DNA from: an archaeon
Lineage (GTDB): Archaea > Iainarchaeota > Iainarchaeia > Iainarchaeales > 1-14-0-10-31-34
Reading direction: 5' to 3'
DNA length: 64,000 nt
NCBI GenBank assembly: GCA_043819075.1
Contig: JBDRFE010000060.1
Location: forward strand, 780-64,779
The notes under the pieces were generated by a model that worked only from the letters and a program-made list of their open reading frames with translations, made no database searches and was not told where the DNA came from. The stretch's first letter is position 1. The number at the start of each line of letters is the position of its first letter. Of this stretch, positions 5,413-59,090 are shown piece after piece. Position numbers and translations under genes: made by a program.

Positions 5413-5493
5413 TTATTTCCTTGCACTATTTTTTTACATCACTATTGAGCAAAGCGAAATAGTGCACTGGTGTAAACTGACAGCGGCAGTTTT

Positions 5494-20861: not shown

Positions 20862-20962
20862 CGCGATTTCAACCGCTCACTCGGTTGACGCGTGTGCAGA
20901 GCGTAAAGCTCTGCTAGCATGGCTTTATGCCGTGCCTCGTGCTCAAACGGCGAAACGTTTGA
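20862..20962 (+). ncRNA. GC-rich twin-hairpin structured element, copy A (stand-alone candidate sRNA)
   Basis: GCAGAGC-GTAAA-GCTCTGC TA GCATGGC-TTTAT-GCCGTGC, then CAAACG-GCGAAA-CGTTTG; oligo-T runs at 20969-20985. Confidence 0.45.
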
Positions 20963-21009
20963 AAAGCTGTTTTTTAAGTTTTTTGCTTTAACTTTAATTA
21001 GGTGATGCT

Positions 21010-25503: not shown

Positions 25504-25759
25504 AACACCTTTTCCAAAAGGTGCAACTTAAACCAAAAAGGTTTAAGTGCACAACAAAATAAAAATTTTGTTGCTGTAACAAAATGCACGGCATTCGCTT
25601 TTTGCTCAGCCGGGCTGTAATGGCCAAAAAAACCAAAACAAGTAGTAATTATTTCTTTAAGTAAATAATTAAAGCTTTTGTGGAAGAATCCGTGAATCAC
25701 TTCTGTAAAACATTAAGATGTTTCGTTGCTAAAATAATTTAAATGCTGTGGTTAAGAAG

Positions 25760-25935
25760 AGGTTGTACTAGCACGGGTTTATCCCATGCACAGTCACATC
25801 CGAGCGAAATCGCGAATAGCCCAGAAGAGATCCCAACAACAGTTTCGGCTGTTGGGTACGAGGCACGACGTGAAGTCGTGCTAGCACAGCTTTATGCTGT
25901 GCACTGGTGTCAAGCTGACAGCGGCAGTTGTGAAA
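25760..25935. ncRNA. GC-rich twin-hairpin structured element, copy B (on the 3' flank of tRNA-Gln)
   Basis: GCACGGG-TTTAT-CCCATGC ... CAACAG-TTTCGG-CTGTTG ... GCACGAC-GTGAA-GTCGTGC TA GCACAGC-TTTAT-GCTGTGC, then the ACTGGTGTCAAGCTGACAGCGGCAG motif. Confidence 0.45.
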
Positions 25936-26008
25936 TAGCCCCGAGGAGATTCGAACTCCTGTCAACGGGTTCAAAGCCCGTCATCCTTGGCCACTAGACT
26001 ACGGGGCT
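25936..26008 (-). tRNA. tRNA-Gln (anticodon TTG)
   Basis: Acceptor AGCCCCG/CGGGGCT, anticodon stem ACGGG/CCCGT, loop CTTTGAA, T-arm AGGAG-TTCGAAT-CTCCT. Confidence 0.8.
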
Positions 26009-46924: not shown

Positions 46925-47070
46925 CAGCTCGACTGAACGAAGTGAATAACCGCTTCCGTGCGGTTGTGACGGCGCACGGCGTGAAGCCGTGCTAGCGCAA
47001 CTTTATGTTGTGCACCGTTGCTCACGGACGGAACCGTGACGTGGCAGCCGAGCGAAATCGGCTAACTGCA
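46925..47070 (+). ncRNA. GC-rich twin-hairpin structured element, copy C (stand-alone, oligo-T at 47081-47093)
   Basis: TTCAG-CTCGA-CTGAA; GCACGGC-GTGAA-GCCGTGC TA GCGCAAC-TTTAT-GTTGTGC; CACGG-ACGGAA-CCGTG; GCCGA-GCGAAA-TCGGC. Confidence 0.5.
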
Positions 47071-48333: not shown

Positions 48334-50187
48334 TTACTGCGTGTTTTCTTCTGTTTTTTTCCCCTGCAGTTCAAACATTCTGGTTATTTCTTTTTCTGTT
48401 GTTGCTTCTTCCGGTTTTTTGTCTGAACGCATTGAAATCATTCTCGGAAACCTTAAAGCCAGCCCTTTTCCGTCTTTAAACCCTGCCAAGTGAATCGGGC
48501 TTCTAGTTATTTCGTCTGCCCTGATTTCAATTACATATTTTGGTTCAGTCCAGTAATCTGGTTCAAGAGATGATTCAACTCTTGCAGGCTTTTTTTTTGA
48601 AGAAATTTTTTTAAGGATTTTTTCTAACTCGCTTAAATTTTTTTCTGTCAAGCCTGTCCCGATTTTTGCAATGCTTTTAAAGCAGTCATCTTTTTCAGAG
48701 TAAATTCCTGTTAATAGCGCGCCTAACCCGAATTCAGTTCTTTTTCCTTTTCCTTTATAGTAACCTATTATTACTCCGTCAATTGAGTCATTTAATTCCA
48801 TTTTATAGCTTCTTTTTAATTTAATCCAGGCAAACTTTCTTGCTCCTGCAATGTATTTTGCGTTCAAGTCTTTTGCAATAATCCCTTCTAATCCTTTTGA
48901 AATGCTGTCATCAAAGAATTCATCCAGTTTTTTGCTTGAATCTGTTTCAATGCTTTTGGTTAATTCAATTATTTTTCCTTTGCCAATCATTTCCTTTAAT
49001 TTTTTTCTTCTTTCAGTTAAAGGCTTTTCCATTAAATTTTCTTCTTCTAAAAGCATTATATCAAACACAAAAAGTTTTAACGGGAATTCTTTTGTTTTTT
49101 CGTTTATTCCGTATTTTCTTTTTCTCTGGATTGTCAGCTGGAATGAAAGGAATTCTTCTGTTAATTCATTGAATGCAATTGCTTCGCCTTCAAAAATCGT
49201 TTTCTCTGCTTTAACCTGTTCTTTTATTGCTTTCACTATATCAGGAAACATTTCACTCATGTTCTCTGACTGCCTTGAATAAATCCATACATTGTTTTTG
49301 TTTTTATGGCACTGTAATCTGAAGCCGTCATATTTTGCTTCTACAATGCATTTTCCCAGTTTTTCTATTATTTCTTGAGAAGAATTAAGCCTTTCAGCTA
49401 AAGTCGGCCTGATAGGAATTCCTGCTTCAATTTTAATTTCTTTTAATCCATTTAATCCTTTTTCTTTGAGTATTTCAGCTATTGCCCCTAAATCAGAATA
49501 AATATTATATTTTTCCTCTATTTTCTGCCTTAACCTTAATTTAATTCTTCTTTCAAGTTCTTCTTTCCGGTTTTTTTCTTTTATTTTTTTTTCATTCATT
49601 TCAGCTTCAATTTTTTGCATTAATTTTTTGTCCTGCATTCCTTCTTCCAGAAAGTTTGCTGCAAGCGCATCCATTATTGTGGGGTCTCCTATGCCTAACC
49701 TTAAGTTTTCTAACGGAATTCTTGCAATAAATTTTGCTTCTTTTCCTGTAGCGGAATTAAATAGTTCTGCCATTAATTTTAGTTTTGATTCTTTTGAGCC
49801 GGTTCCCTCTGTTTTTGAAATCTTTATTAAGTTGTCAAAAACTTTTTCTACAGTTAATTCGCTTGAAAACAATGCTGACTGTTTTTTTTGTTCAGCAAAT
49901 TCTTCTGCCACCAACCCTAAATCCCCTTTTTCCCTGAACTTTTTTTCTATTTCTTTTTTTGTAAAGCCAGTTGTTTTTGCAATGGCTTCAATCACCATTT
50001 TTTCTCCTAATCCTGACTCAATTTTTTCGTAATTAGCGCCTAACCTGCCCTGGCATAAGAAAACAATTTTTTTGATGTCTTTTTTGCCTGCTTTCTCAAA
50101 TAATTCTGCTAAAACTGAAGTCATTTCCAGCCTTGAAGAAATGCCTTCAATTCTGTCAAAATATGAGCTTAATTCCCTGAAATTCAT
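48334..50187 (-). CDS. lig: ATP-dependent DNA ligase
   Basis: KYDGFR adenylation motif; start at MNFRELSSYFD (50187) as in archaeal ligases. Confidence 0.85.
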   Translation of the reverse strand: MNFRELSSYFDRIEGISSRLEMTSVLAELFEKAGKKDIKKIVFLCQGRLGANYEKIESGLGEKMVIEAIAKTTGFTKKEIEKKFREKGDLGLVAEEFAEQKKQSALFSSELTVEKVFDNLIKISKTEGTGSKESKLKLMAELFNSATGKEAKFIARIPLENLRLGIGDPTIMDALAANFLEEGMQDKKLMQKIEAEMNEKKIKEKNRKEELERRIKLRLRQKIEEKYNIYSDLGAIAEILKEKGLNGLKEIKIEAGIPIRPTLAERLNSSQEIIEKLGKCIVEAKYDGFRLQCHKNKNNVWIYSRQSENMSEMFPDIVKAIKEQVKAEKTIFEGEAIAFNELTEEFLSFQLTIQRKRKYGINEKTKEFPLKLFVFDIMLLEEENLMEKPLTERRKKLKEMIGKGKIIELTKSIETDSSKKLDEFFDDSISKGLEGIIAKDLNAKYIAGARKFAWIKLKRSYKMELNDSIDGVIIGYYKGKGKRTEFGLGALLTGIYSEKDDCFKSIAKIGTGLTEKNLSELEKILKKISSKKKPARVESSLEPDYWTEPKYVIEIRADEITRSPIHLAGFKDGKGLALRFPRMISMRSDKKPEEATTEKEITRMFELQGKKTEENTQ

Positions 50188-50258
50188 TATAGAATTAGTC
50201 TTCTGAAATTTAAATGCTTTTAGTTTAAAAACATTATTTAACCATTTTATTATGTTTT

Positions 50259-50459
50259 GGGACCGTGGTGTAGCCTGGTCTAGCATTGCGGCTTTGGGCC
50301 ACAACTGTTTCGTCAGTTGAGTGCGATGCACGACTTTCGCGGTTTAGCCCGCGAGAGACTATGCACTACTTTCAGTAGAGCTAGCTTGCTTCGCTTTATT
50401 CTGATAAAATAATTGATGCAAATAAGCCGTTGACCCCGGTTCAAATCCGGGCGGTCTCA
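50259..50459 (+). tRNA. tRNA-Pro (anticodon TGG) with 126-nt intron after position 37 (50299..50424)
   Basis: Exon 1 GGGACCG..GCGGC-TTTGGG; exon 2 A-GCCGT-TGAC-CCCGG-TTCAAAT-CCGGG-CGGTCTC-A; acceptor and anticodon stems pair across the intron. Confidence 0.7.
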
Positions 50460-54173: not shown

Positions 54174-55637
54174 TTAATACGATTTTGCGATATAAACGAT
54201 TTTTTCTGCTTTTTTTCCGCAGGCAATGCAGTTTCCTTTTGGATTTTCTTTTTCTCCAAGCCTTGTCCCTCTAATGCTTGCATTCAATTCTTTTTCAATT
54301 TTTTCTGCGCAAGAATAGCCTTCCATTGACACTGAACAGAACCCTGTTTTGATTATTTTGCCTTTCTCTAATTCTTTTTTTGCTTTTTCAATTGAGTCAG
54401 CTGAAACAATTGCTTCACTGAACTCTTTTTCAGCTTTTAACTGAAGTTCTTTCAGCTGTTTTTCGCCTTCTTTTAAAATCAAAGAGCTTATTCTTGCAAG
54501 GTTTTCTTTTGTTTTTTTTCCTGAATGCCTTGCAAAAACTGTTGCTTTTTTTTCAGTTAACTCTTTTTCCCCTAATTCAATGCGGAATGGAACTCCTTTC
54601 ATTTCCCAGAAATAAAATTTTTCTCCGATTGTTTTGTCAGTTAAATCAGCTTCAGCCCTTAATTTTTTTTCAGTTAATTCTTTTCTTATTTTTTCTGTTT
54701 CTTTTAATATTTTTTCCTTGTTTTTGTCGTTATAAATCGGCACAATCACTGCTTGCAACGGTGCCGCAGTGAATGGAAGCACTAATCCTTTGTTGTCGCC
54801 GTGAACTGAAATCATTGCGGCAAAAATCCTGCTTACTGCCGGGCCATAGCATGTTGTCCAGCAGTAATTTTCTTTTCCTTTTTCGTCAGTGAATTTTACA
54901 TTAAATGCTTTTGTAAAATTTTGCGATATAACATGAGTTGAAGGCAGCTGCAGTATTTTTCCGTCTGGCATTAAAGTGTCTGCTGCAAAAGTTGATTCTG
55001 CTCCCGGAAACTTGTCCCATTGCGGTCTCTCAAAAAAAATAAACGGAATCCCTAATTTTTCCAGCAGCACTTCTTTTGTTGTCTGCATGTCTTCTTCTGC
55101 CTGCAAAAAAGCGTTTTCTCTTGAATCAAATGCATTATGTGTTTCAATCCAGTAAAATTCCCTGCTTCTGATGAAAGGCTTTGTTGCTTTTGTTTCATGC
55201 CTGAAAACCTGTGCTCTTTGATATGTTTTGAATGGAAGGTCTTTGTATGACCTAATCCATAAAGAAAACATCTGGTAGAAAGCTGTTTCTGATGTCGGCC
55301 TTAAAGCAAGTTTTTCCTCTAATTTTTCTCCTGCACCAGTTTCTGTTACCCAAAACACTTCTGGTGCAAAGCCTTTTACATGCTCTTTTTCCATTAAAAA
55401 ATTTTTTTCCGGGATTACAACAGGATACCAGTATGGTTTGTGGCCTTTTAATTGAAGTGTTTCTTCAAAAAAGTCATACATTTTTTCCATTGCAATAACA
55501 GACCATGGCTGGAAAATCAGAAAGCCTTTTACATTATATCTTAAGTCCCCTAATTCAGCTTTTTTTACTATTTCAGAGTACCATTCAGAGAAATTGTTTT
55601 TTTTGTCAAAGTCAAATGTGACTTTTTCTTTTGCCAT
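54174..55637 (-). CDS. proS: prolyl-tRNA synthetase (archaeal/eukaryal type)
   Basis: Class II ProRS core with C-terminal zinc-binding extension; about 487 aa. Confidence 0.85.
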   Translation of the reverse strand: MAKEKVTFDFDKKNNFSEWYSEIVKKAELGDLRYNVKGFLIFQPWSVIAMEKMYDFFEETLQLKGHKPYWYPVVIPEKNFLMEKEHVKGFAPEVFWVTETGAGEKLEEKLALRPTSETAFYQMFSLWIRSYKDLPFKTYQRAQVFRHETKATKPFIRSREFYWIETHNAFDSRENAFLQAEEDMQTTKEVLLEKLGIPFIFFERPQWDKFPGAESTFAADTLMPDGKILQLPSTHVISQNFTKAFNVKFTDEKGKENYCWTTCYGPAVSRIFAAMISVHGDNKGLVLPFTAAPLQAVIVPIYNDKNKEKILKETEKIRKELTEKKLRAEADLTDKTIGEKFYFWEMKGVPFRIELGEKELTEKKATVFARHSGKKTKENLARISSLILKEGEKQLKELQLKAEKEFSEAIVSADSIEKAKKELEKGKIIKTGFCSVSMEGYSCAEKIEKELNASIRGTRLGEKENPKGNCIACGKKAEKIVYIAKSY

Positions 55638-56045: not shown

Positions 56046-56140
56046 TTTAATCAATAAAAATACTGAACCAGAATTAATAAGGCTTTCTTTAAACTGCCGT
56101 TCGCCGATTCTGCTCGGTGGCAATGAGGTACAACACAAGG

Positions 56141-56283
56141 TCTTGTTAGCACGGTTTTATGCCGCAACCGTCACGCTCGGTTGGTGTGCGCGCACGGGAT
56201 AAACCCGTGCTAGCGCAACTTTATGTTGCGCACCGTTACACTCGCACGGAAGCGAGTCGGTGCTCGCGGGCGAAACCGCGAAA
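56141..56283. ncRNA. GC-rich twin-hairpin structured element, copy D (abuts the tRNA-Pro(GGG) 3' end)
   Basis: ACGGTT-TTATGCCGC-AACCGT; GCACGGG-ATAAA-CCCGTGC TA GCGCAAC-TTTAT-GTTGCGC; CTCGC-ACGGAA-GCGAG; CGCGG-GCGAAA-CCGCG. Confidence 0.5.
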
Positions 56284-56357
56284 TGGGACCGCCGAGATTT
56301 GAACTCGAGTTACAAGCTCCCCGAGCTTGAGTGATAACCAGACTACACTACGGCCCC
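56284..56357 (-). tRNA. tRNA-Pro (anticodon GGG)
   Basis: Acceptor GGGGCCG/CGGTCCC (one G.U), anticodon stem CAAGC/GCTTG, loop TCGGGGA, T-arm TCGAG-TTCAAAT-CTCGG. Confidence 0.75.
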
Positions 56358-58826: not shown

Positions 58827-58840
58827 AAGAAATAAAACTT

Positions 58841-58962
58841 TTTCAGCTCGGCTGAGCAGAGCGAATGCCAAACCAGTTTCGGCTGGTTGCAGCGACGCAC
58901 AGCTTTTAGCTGTGCTAGCACGACCTTGTGTCGTGCGTTTGATACAACTTTGGAAAGTTGTT
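58841..58962. ncRNA. GC-rich twin-hairpin structured element, copy E (abuts the tRNA-Trp 3' end; hairpin order swapped)
   Basis: TCAGC-TCG-GCTGA; CCAG-TTTCGG-CTGG; GCACAGC-TTTTA-GCTGTGC TA GCACGAC-CTTGT-GTCGTGC; CAACTTT-GGA-AAGTTG. Confidence 0.45.
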
Positions 58963-59090
58963 TGGGGACACTGGGAGTCGAACCCAGATTTCATGGTTGC
59001 TGCCTTTTTTAGAAAATTTTGTTTTTGATAAAACTTTTTTCTAAAAAGTTTTGTCTGGAGCCAAGCGGGATGCCATTACCCCATGTCCCC
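58963..59090 (-). tRNA. tRNA-Trp (anticodon CCA) with ~55-nt AT-rich intron in the anticodon loop
   Basis: Exon 1 GGGGACA..CTTGG-CTCCAG; exon 2 A-CCATG-AAAT-CTGGG-TTCGACT-CCCAG-TGTCCCC-A; one U.U mismatch in the anticodon stem. Confidence 0.6.

Follow-up and report, generated by a model that had tools for sequence, protein, structure and literature searches.

The 64,000-nt stretch analyzed here, referred to throughout as the window, comes from contig JBDRFE010000060.1 of an archaeon of the Iainarchaeota and contains a gene for tRNA-Pro(UGG) that is interrupted by an intron (Table 1). We numbered the tRNA by hand, which places G1 at 50259, G37 at 50298, A38 at 50425 and the discriminator A73 at 50459. 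An earlier note on this DNA had proposed a 126-nt intron of tRNA-Pro(TGG) at 50299-50424, at the canonical 37/38 site, and both the manual numbering and ARAGORN run with introns allowed reproduce this exactly. ARAGORN reported tRNA-Pro(tgg) i(41,126), i.e., a 126-nt intron in the anticodon loop, and called the spliced exons tRNA-Pro(tgg) with a clean 75-nt cloverleaf. By manual reading, the acceptor stem pairs GGGACCG with CGGUCUC, the anticodon stem pairs GCGGC with GCCGU, and the D and T arms are normal. The CCA is not encoded at the 3′ end, and an oligo-T run follows the gene, as expected of a terminator. The gene was missed both by ARAGORN in default mode and by Rfam at the gathering threshold. 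No other tRNA-Pro(UGG) was seen within the window.

The exon-intron junctions form the textbook hBHBh′ motif (bulge-helix-bulge, BHB, between two outer helices) of a canonical archaeal tRNA intron. They fold into a 4-bp helix, two 3-nt bulges and outer helices of at least 2 bp. The central helix pairs UUUG with CAAA at all four positions, and the bulges are GG/C and UA/A, with the splice sites at the slashes. Helix h is the 5-bp anticodon stem; helix h′ is made by intron nucleotides 2-6 with UUG-A-UG (C2-G, A3-U, a 1-nt bulge, then C4-G, A5-U and A6-U). A fold constrained to the cloverleaf and the BHB reaches -68.5 kcal/mol versus -75.8 kcal/mol for the unconstrained optimum. We infer that the intron works as any canonical archaeal intron does. 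By the established archaeal pathway, EndA would cut in both bulges, RtcB would join the exons, and the excised intron would probably be circularized.

The gene adjoins an ATP-dependent DNA ligase gene (48334-50187, - strand), and we used this neighbor to locate orthologues in related genomes (loci are given by L numbers). By its ligase, the organism belongs to the Iainarchaeia/Diapherotrites (DPANN). A look-up for an exact match to the ligase found nothing. The ligase is 99% identical in contig JBDRTA010000007 of GCA_043824355.1 (L007), which has the same pre-tRNA with an identical intron. Six further relatives, with ligases 78-82% identical, keep tRNA-Pro(UGG) at the ligase-adjacent site, each with an intron at 37/38 (38, 82, 85, 88, 103 and 103 nt long). 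The syntenic genes (L001, L002, L005, L007, L008, L009 and L010/L011; Iainarchaeia, DPANN) thus represent seven related genomes. The 4-bp BHB helix (4/4 pairs) and the 3-nt bulges are intact in every one of them. Among the relatives, pairs that span the exons covary in the acceptor and anticodon stems (6-67, C-G/U-A; 28-42, C-G/U-A; 29-41, G-C/U-A), a pattern that is understandable only for exons spliced into a single tRNA. This is a working-type tRNA-Pro(UGG) gene with an archaeal BHB intron. The intron interiors, at lengths of 38-126 nt, are mostly unalignable, except for L009 and, in part, L010. The L009 intron (82 nt) aligns with the first ~38 and the last ~46 nt of the window intron, which has ~44 extra nt in the middle; the L010 intron has the 3′ part in common with it. 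The L002 intron is the shortest, and some of the others have unrelated AT-rich interiors.

The intron had been described as long, GC-rich and folded into several hairpins. At 126 nt it lies near the top of the 11-129 nt range of archaeal tRNA introns, for which medians are 12-25 nt (review PMC4090602); it is long, yet with precedent. It is GC-rich in a relative sense only (43.7% vs 34.5% for the window), and 80-nt stretches with at least 50% GC extend across 50251-50400. Its predicted fold has an energy of -39.8 kcal/mol (z = -3.8), and none of 200 shuffled sequences was as stable. All three hairpins listed earlier are present: CAACTG-TTTCGT-CAGTTG (50302-50319) and TCGCGG-TTTAGC-CCGCGA (50337-50354), both with 6-bp stems, and CTAC-TTTCA-GTAG, which lies within GCACTAC-TTTCA-GTAGAGC (50363-50381).

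These hairpins belong to a dispersed multi-hairpin element. The full element is ~100 nt long and consists of hairpin H1, the 5′ strand of a helix P1, hairpin hpA, UA, hairpin hpB, the 3′ strand of P1 and hairpin H4. H1 has a 6-bp stem and a UUYCGN loop, and H4 has GCGAAA, CCGAAA or ACGGAA as its loop. The core is a pair of 7-bp hairpins joined by UA, GCNNNNN-loop-NNNNNGC UA GCNNNNN-UUUAU-NNNNNGC, so the hpA/hpB junction is the palindrome GCUAGC. We scanned metagenomes with the pattern GCTAGCACNNNTTTATNNNGTGC, the one scan through which the taxonomic range of the element was sampled. Of the 70 matches, 26 had the unspecified triplets fully paired, where ~5% would be expected by chance. All 26 share the larger architecture, and the unpaired matches are unrelated conserved genes.

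We assessed the proposed helices in 20 of these foreign copies. In hpA, 100% of the cells are paired, with compensatory changes at 5 of 7 pairs; in H1, 93% are paired, with compensatory changes at 5 of 6. Both hairpins lay outside the search pattern and give independent support for the family. The value for hpB (98.6%) concerns a hairpin that was part of the pattern. Pairing is lower for H4 (71%), whose register varies among copies, and for P1 (60%), which only some copies have; we therefore rejected the idea that P1 closes the element in every copy. Nor is loop-loop kissing (H1 with H4, or hpA with hpB) a general feature: some copies have complementary loops (UUCCGU/ACGGAA in the copy at 46946; AUAAA/UUUAU) and others do not (UGAAA/AUAAA, ACAAG/UAAAA, CUCACU/GCGAAA). 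Across genomes, conserved loop sequences are UUUAU, UUYCGN and GCGAAA.

A covariance model, R1, was built from the 20 metagenomic copies only, with none from the window. In the window it detects five full copies (59-90 bits), followed by the intron and a weak copy; the next, unrelated match scores 17.8 bits. When the foreign copies were compared to the window by blastn, 167 of 171 matches fell in the seven element regions. The GC-rich hairpin arrays, which we found by inspecting GC islands, each center on the palindrome GCTAGC; it occurs at seven sites in the window, six of them in the arrays, including one in the intron. The two strands of a copy score nearly equally with R1 and the loops on its two sides are mutual reverse complements, so the element is a pseudo-palindrome. 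Window copies differ in stem sequence, with compensatory changes, and only one piece, of 21 nt, is nearly the same at two loci; a large set of near-identical copies in a single genome, as expected of transposable elements of the miniature inverted-repeat type (MITEs) or repetitive extragenic palindromic (REP) sequences, was not found in the window. A viral or mobile-element origin was also considered and rejected on searches of IMG/VR viral contigs: a looser pattern gave 1 paired match out of 80, essentially the outcome of chance, and stricter patterns gave none. We found no description of the element in the literature searched, on Diapherotrites, DPANN tRNA introns and archaeal MITEs. The family appears to be undescribed, structurally well defined and widespread in groundwater metagenomes.

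The intron carries parts of two copies of this element. Its first module (50302-50327 for the 6-bp H1 with a UUYCGN-type loop and the P1 5′ strand AGUGCGRU) is 90-93% identical over 29-32 nt to the 5′ ends of the copies in L032 and L061 (blastn, E = 2.9e-7, the best of 11 matches between foreign copies and the intron). R1 gives a partial match there, at 50300-50323, and the module also occurs in the orthologous intron of L009. Within the window, intron nucleotides 3-36 resemble 25836-25869, beside tRNA-Gln. The earlier note had remarked that the TTTCGT loop echoes TTTCGG loops in flanking elements, and blastn with the foreign copies together with the covariance model show this to be real homology. 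TTTCGG as an enriched motif was rejected (30 sites vs 31 expected in the window), so the signal is the hairpin context and not the hexamer.

The second part of the intron is the stretch that R1 aligns at 50335-50418 (34.0 bits; E = 8.5e-7 in the 64-kb window). Hairpin X (50337-50354) takes the place of H1, and GCACUAC-UUUCA-GUAGAGC takes the place of hpA and is followed by UA-GC. Of the twin hairpins, hpA (with one mismatch) and GCUAGC are thus present at 50363-50385, and the hpB stem is gone: 13 of 15 interior hpB positions are deleted and only the UUUAU loop is left. This deletion makes the intron copy a decayed member of the family. Intron nucleotides 37-57, which contain hairpin X, match 20 of the first 21 nt of the 3′ trailer of tRNA-Pro(GGG) (56283-56263, - strand; 95%, E = 3.8e-4), as found by self-comparison of the window; hairpin X is absent from the L009 intron, where the alignment has a gap. 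In the minimum-energy rod the A/U-rich tail pairs back onto module 1, and this tail is kept in the introns of L009 and L010. Read from these alignments, the intron appears to be a mosaic of a truncated 5′ fragment (H1, P1 5′ strand and half of hpA) and a second copy (X, hpA and UA-GC) with hpB deleted. The family copy is in sense orientation, and the intron termini supply the BHB.

Table 1 Features of the tRNA-Pro(UGG) locus and copies of the multi-hairpin element in the window
Feature	Position	Strand	Evidence
tRNA-Pro(UGG) gene, complete: 5′ exon, intron, 3′ exon with discriminator A	50259..50459	+	manual cloverleaf, ARAGORN -i, synteny
5′ exon, tRNA positions 1-37; anticodon UGG at 50295-50297	50259..50298	+	manual, ARAGORN -i
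Intron, 126 nt, canonical 37/38 position	50299..50424	+	manual, ARAGORN -i, orthologues
3′ exon, positions 38-73	50425..50459	+	manual, ARAGORN -i
BHB, 5′ half: the central 4-bp helix has U32-G35 (50293-50296) as its 5′ strand; the 3-nt bulge with the 5′ splice site comprises G36, G37 and intron nt 1 (50297-50299)	50293..50299	+	sequence reading, orthologue table
BHB, 3′ half: UG 50417-50418 pairs with intron nt 2-3 (helix h′); CAAA 50419-50422 pairs with U32-G35; U, A, A38 (50423-50425), 3-nt bulge with 3′ splice site	50417..50425	+	sequence reading, constrained fold
Module 1: hairpin H1 (CAACUG-UUUCGU-CAGUUG), P1 5′ strand AGUGCGAU, GCACGAC (orphan 5′ half of hpA)	50302..50334	+	blastn, covariance model, L009
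Hairpin X (UUUCGCGG-UUUAGC-CCGCGAG), H1-type module	50335..50355	+	self-comparison, model alignment
hpA-like hairpin GCACUAC-UUUCA-GUAGAGC, then palindromic center GC-UA-GC (GCTAGC 50380-50385)	50363..50385	+	L075 blastn match 50362-50385, model alignment
Decayed hpB remnant (…CGC UUUAU U…) and A/U-rich tail	50386..50418	+	fold, alignments, model
Full copy, stand-alone, intergenic	20868..20965	+	R1 66-68 bits, both strands
Two copies in the tRNA-Ile/tRNA-Gln spacer: weak 25705-25819, full 25835-25934	25705..25934	+	R1 29.5 and 69.6 bits
Best full copy of the window, between a transaldolase gene and a 326-aa open reading frame	46946..47043	+	R1 90 bits
Hairpin array immediately 3′ of tRNA-Pro(GGG) (56284-56357, -); full copy 56163-56261	56095..56283	-	R1 78-81 bits
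Hairpin array immediately 3′ of tRNA-Trp (58963-59090, -), with family copy	58835..58965	-	R1 59-71 bits

The element is gained, lost and eroded among close relatives. The spacer that holds the copy at 46946 is 217 nt long in the window and in L007 versus 56-61 nt in L008 and L009. For tRNA-Pro(GGG), the window and L010 have an intact trailer array, L005 has a decayed one and L008 and L002 have none; the tRNA-Trp trailers likewise vary from intact through decayed to absent. Presence/absence polymorphism at orthologous sites, a hallmark of MITE and REP families, is therefore seen in this spacer and in the trailers. Across syntenic regions of ~20 kb there are 4 copies in L007 versus 0-2 in the relatives. 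Orthology between the copy at 20868 and a similar copy at 13143 of L002 was rejected, the flanking genes not being in common.

In these ultra-small archaea (Iainarchaeia, DPANN) the element is lineage-specific and clusters next to tRNA genes and within several of their introns. Copies are found as tRNA leaders, as trailers, inside tRNA introns and in a few intergenic spacers. For 12 of the 27 distinct copies analyzed, a tRNA gene is 25-160 nt away; such copies often abut it at 0-6 nt. In the window, the full copy at 25835-25934 has its 3′ end 1 nt from the 3′ end of tRNA-Gln (25936-26008), which is on the opposite strand. The tRNA-Pro intron is not the only one to host the family. In L037, a tRNA-Thr(UGU) gene (1426-1654, -) has a canonical 157-nt BHB intron with a nearly complete copy that scores 61 bits and was outside the training set (61.4 bits on the sense strand vs 57.6 on the other). 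The 2014 review (PMC4090602) puts the maximum for archaeal tRNA introns at 129 nt, which this intron exceeds; ARAGORN miscalled the unspliced gene as Tyr(gta). Family modules also occur in the 83-nt tRNA-Arg(UCU) intron of L034 and in the tRNA-Trp introns of L001 and the window.

The copies near tRNA genes have a fixed polarity. Because the element is symmetric under reverse complementation, we abandoned strand assignment from loops alone and assigned strands by the difference in folding energy, which is modest. In 11 of 12 copies the strand that folds better, which is rich in G·U, runs toward the neighboring tRNA; among copies with a difference of at least 3 kcal/mol, all 8 do so (loci: window 25835-25934 and 56163-56261; L013, L030, L032, L033, L051, L057, L061). 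Upstream copies are thus on the strand of the tRNA and downstream copies on the opposite strand. Oriented, target-specific insertion would give such a polarity; its cause could be either this or an RNA that needs a tRNA or a mirror-tRNA at its 3′ end. Pairing of leader and trailer into a processing stem, as in rRNA, was rejected: inverted modules never flank both sides of one gene at the loci examined.

Several other modules recur beside tRNA genes. A conserved leader module reaches to within 0-2 nt of the 5′ end of the tRNA (window 5440-5493, +; L001 666-711; L002 9880-9915, -). It comprises a hairpin with the loop GAGC(R)AAAGCGAA and a G·A-rich internal loop that may be kink-turn-like, followed by a second hairpin, AACUG-ACAGCGG-CAGUU, with a covarying stem (AAUCG/CGAUU in L001). 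In reverse complement, this module is also found directly 3′ of other tRNAs (window 25903-25935 and the tRNA-Pro trailer of L009). A module of the form GGCAUUCGCU(N2-4)GCUCAGYCGRGCUG, outside model R1, accompanies the family and recurs at distal array ends and in the tRNA-Arg intron of L034 (window 25590-25617, +, and 58835-58860, -; the L034 intron; the L010 trailer; L012; L063). Directly against the 5′ end of tRNA-Ile, at 25505-25575 (+) of the window, stand three consecutive AT-rich perfect hairpins, ACACCUUUUCCAAAAGGUG, ACUUAAACC-AAAAA-GGUUUAAGU and CAACAAAAU…AUUUUGUUG; a related module, AACAACUUU…AAAGUUGU-AUCAAAC, opens several 3′ trailers and the L010 tRNA-Pro intron.

The motif ATTTAAATGCT is found at 50218-50229 (+), ~30-40 nt upstream of tRNA-Pro(UGG), and at 25736-25746 (+), ~25 nt before the element cluster at 25768. 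In L005 and L009, TTAAATGCTTT strings like it stand ahead of tRNA-Pro(UGG). The motif ATTTAAATGCT may be the local promoter consensus (transcription factor B recognition element, BRE, and TATA box). If it is a promoter, the elements at 25705-25934 would be transcribed on the + strand, toward antisense tRNA-Gln. The tRNA-Trp(CCA) gene of the window (58963-59090, -) has a canonical AT-rich intron of ~57 nt, and ARAGORN run with introns miscalls it as Gly(ccc). This intron lacks C/D boxes, unlike euryarchaeal tRNA-Trp introns; it is built of AT-rich hairpin modules, which blastn also detects next to a family copy in L043 (E = 7e-9). In the anticodon stem, tRNA-Trp of the window/L007 allele is mismatched at U28·U42; L005 and L008 have CCAAG there.

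Taken as a whole, the locus is best explained, in our view, as a tRNA gene with a BHB intron whose body is a passenger copy of a selfish, hairpin-dependent repeat, an account that we hold to be probable on balance. We take the element itself to be, most likely, a selfish repeat living on in the RNA segments discarded by tRNA processing. In a compact, AT-rich genome it would persist at harmless sites, namely leaders, trailers and introns that are removed by RNase P, RNase Z and EndA. In the tRNA-Pro intron it would be a passenger, its sole role in cis being to supply helix h′ and a stable rod beside the BHB. We base this reading on copies being gained, lost and decayed between close relatives, on the existence of mosaic and truncated copies, on the strand symmetry and on the polarity that is fixed from either side of a tRNA. 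The earlier note had suggested a small RNA embedded in the intron; its link to hairpin elements beside other tRNAs holds, and the guide-RNA gene gives way to a degenerate repeat copy. Several observations count against a selfish repeat. We identified neither a transposase nor terminal inverted repeats or target-site duplications, although the window was not screened for transposases and the element boundaries are not definable to the base. Within-genome copies are divergent rather than near-identical and their stems covary, which implies sustained selection on hairpin formation and would also fit a functional RNA. One strand folds better through G·U pairs, an RNA-like signature, and the UUUAU, UUYCGN and GCGAAA loops are those conserved between genomes. 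The 3′ part of the intron (UUUAUUCUGAU…) is conserved in the window, L009 and L010, which points to some constraint on the interior. We also note that the training copies of R1 were picked with a pairing filter and that a shortened calibration makes its E-values rough, and that splicing, circularization and expression are deduced here rather than observed.

These points bear most on a possible, though rather doubtful, alternative in which the element is a functional tRNA-linked small RNA. RNase P would free copies located 5′ of a tRNA, mirror (antisense) tRNAs included, and EndA those in introns; from the intron copy a stable, structured and probably circular RNA would result that acts in trans, for example as a protein-binding scaffold. 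The strong covariation of H1, hpA and hpB and the conserved loops across many metagenomic copies fit such an RNA, as do the wide distribution of the family in metagenomes and the G·U-rich, better-folding strand being the one with a tRNA or antisense tRNA 0-6 nt after it. The intact copy in the tRNA-Thr intron of L037, which scores slightly higher on the sense strand, and the plausible promoter-like ATTTAAATGCT upstream of both the 25705-25934 copies and tRNA-Pro(UGG) point the same way. However, the copy in the window intron is broken, with two partial copies and no hpB, and at orthologous sites of relatives the element is lost or decaying. There is no conserved single-stranded, guide-like segment, and the reverse-complement symmetry of the loops (UUCCGU/ACGGAA, AUAAA/UUUAU) is unexpected for an RNA read from one strand, kissing being inconsistent (UGAAA/AUAAA). 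A role purely in cis seems improbable. The rod would then stabilize or present the BHB, or slow or gate the maturation of pre-tRNA-Pro, and similarity to elements elsewhere would be incidental reuse of hairpins. In the minimum-energy fold, helix h′ is indeed prolonged by an unbroken rod, L009 and L010 conserve the intron termini as well as the 3′ tail that pairs with module 1, and every relative keeps an intron at the site. Yet the homology to family copies elsewhere is statistically strong, and orthologues with a 38-nt (L002) or an unrelated AT-rich intron indicate that the GC-rich body is dispensable, which argues against this role.

The intron body is not a guide RNA. The earlier note had raised a box C/D-like small RNA while seeing no clear C/D boxes, only TGATGC and CTGA fragments. 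Our motif scan agrees about the boxes, and the suggestion itself fails. CTGA lies at 50401 and TGATGC at 50414, 9 nt apart and in an order loosely like that of D′/C′, and tRNA-Trp introns offer a precedent (PMC4090602). However, neither the linear nor the circularized intron contains an RUGAUGA-like box with up to one mismatch, and the single CUGA (50401) has no second CUGA at guide distance. CUGA and UGAUGC are both absent from all six orthologous introns (L001, L002, L005, L008, L009 and L010), so that CUGA-N9-UGAUGC occurs only in the window/L007 allele; nor is the interior conserved as a unit. With gathering as well as E-value thresholds, Rfam 15 matched only tRNAs in the locus, in the window as a whole and in 12 metagenomic loci, and neither the intron nor the elements, and Rfam box C/D models gave chance-level matches on the locus (E >1). 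We thus rejected box C/D and other known RNA families for the intron and its orthologues, and we give almost no credence to a box C/D or other small nucleolar RNA-like guide of the kind found in euryarchaeal tRNA-Trp introns. It is also very unlikely that the gene is a pseudogene or a disrupted tRNA whose halves are never joined. Standard tRNA finders do skip it, but the BHB is perfect, the spliced product is a canonical tRNA-Pro(UGG), exon-exon covariation and synteny are conserved in relatives, and this is the only tRNA-Pro(UGG) of the window and has an oligo-T run after it.

We compared the intron and the element to known systems. Canonical archaeal BHB introns, processed by EndA and RtcB (Marck and Grosjean 2003; PMC4090602), have the same 37/38 site, 4-bp helix, two 3-nt bulges, flanking helices and normal cloverleaf; the window intron differs in its length of 126 nt (157 nt in a related contig) and in a body that is a copy of a dispersed repeat. 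It is a canonical BHB intron, long because it hosts repeat modules. According to works cited in the review PMC4090602 (Clouet d'Orval 2001, Singh 2004), the tRNA-Trp intron of Haloferax volcanii carries a box C/D small RNA. Both are long structured introns with a distinct RNA module releasable by excision, whereas the window intron has no C/D or C′/D′ boxes and no conserved guide, and its interior is not conserved among orthologues. The nearest precedent, as far as the summary in PMC4090602 goes, is provided by the transposed tRNA introns of Thermoproteales (Fujishima et al. 2010), where similar introns occur in unrelated tRNA genes of one lineage. Both cases imply that intron sequence moves or is gained at the DNA level. 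In that summary the sharing is confined to introns, whereas here modules are also in leaders, trailers and intergenic DNA, intron positions are all canonical, and the unit is a defined multi-hairpin pseudo-palindrome.

The element also resembles REP sequences and bacterial interspersed mosaic elements (BIMEs), Rickettsia palindromic elements, yeast mitochondrial GC clusters (PMC4478555) and MITEs (PMC11602168). All are GC-rich palindromic modules in an AT-rich genome, modular and variably present, that decay and insert into non-coding DNA or RNA genes. The copies described here differ in their divergence with compensatory changes and in their tight polar tie to tRNA ends, and membership in those families is not demonstrated.

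Other RNAs are released together with tRNAs in several systems, including the co-transcripts of tRNA and C/D small RNA in Nanoarchaeum, plant tRNA-snoRNA genes and the cleavage of MALAT1-mascRNA by RNase P. In these, as here, a structured RNA abuts a tRNA or tRNA-like structure and could be released by RNase P, RNase Z or EndA; the window element differs in being a prediction from its nucleotide sequence and in standing outside known RNA classes. We tentatively consider, as a possibility that we do not favor, that it represents an undescribed class of tRNA-coupled structured RNA in DPANN archaea. Its transcript would run into a tRNA, a mirror-tRNA or a tRNA exon, with RNase P or the splicing endonuclease setting its ends, and the intron copies (this one in its intact ancestral form) would become stable circular trans-acting RNAs. 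Equally novel would be a mobile element that targets the outer borders of tRNAs and the anticodon-loop intron with a fixed polarity.

The family illustrates how archaeal tRNA introns can reach, and pass, the reported length limit by taking up repeat modules, and it offers a concrete DNA-level source for the turnover of tRNA intron sequence. It raises the question of whether tRNA flanks and introns are safe havens for selfish hairpins in streamlined genomes or whether tRNA-processing enzymes mature a new small RNA. Because standard tRNA finders miss such genes, the tRNA complements of DPANN metagenome-assembled genomes are likely under-called.

Two further observations concern the second proline tRNA. 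In L001 (3893-4135, +), the last 22 nt of tRNA-Pro(GGG) (AGTTCAAATCTCGGCGGCCCCA) are repeated ~125 nt downstream, past the hairpin array. This looks like an att-type duplication from integration, although a run of N lies in the interval and an assembly artefact is possible. The L001 gene has a 21-nt intron and the window copy has none. A prolyl-tRNA synthetase gene (54174-55637, -) lies between the tRNA-Pro genes for UGG (50259-50459) and GGG (56284-56357), all within ~6 kb, and this arrangement is kept in L007, L008, L009 and L010.

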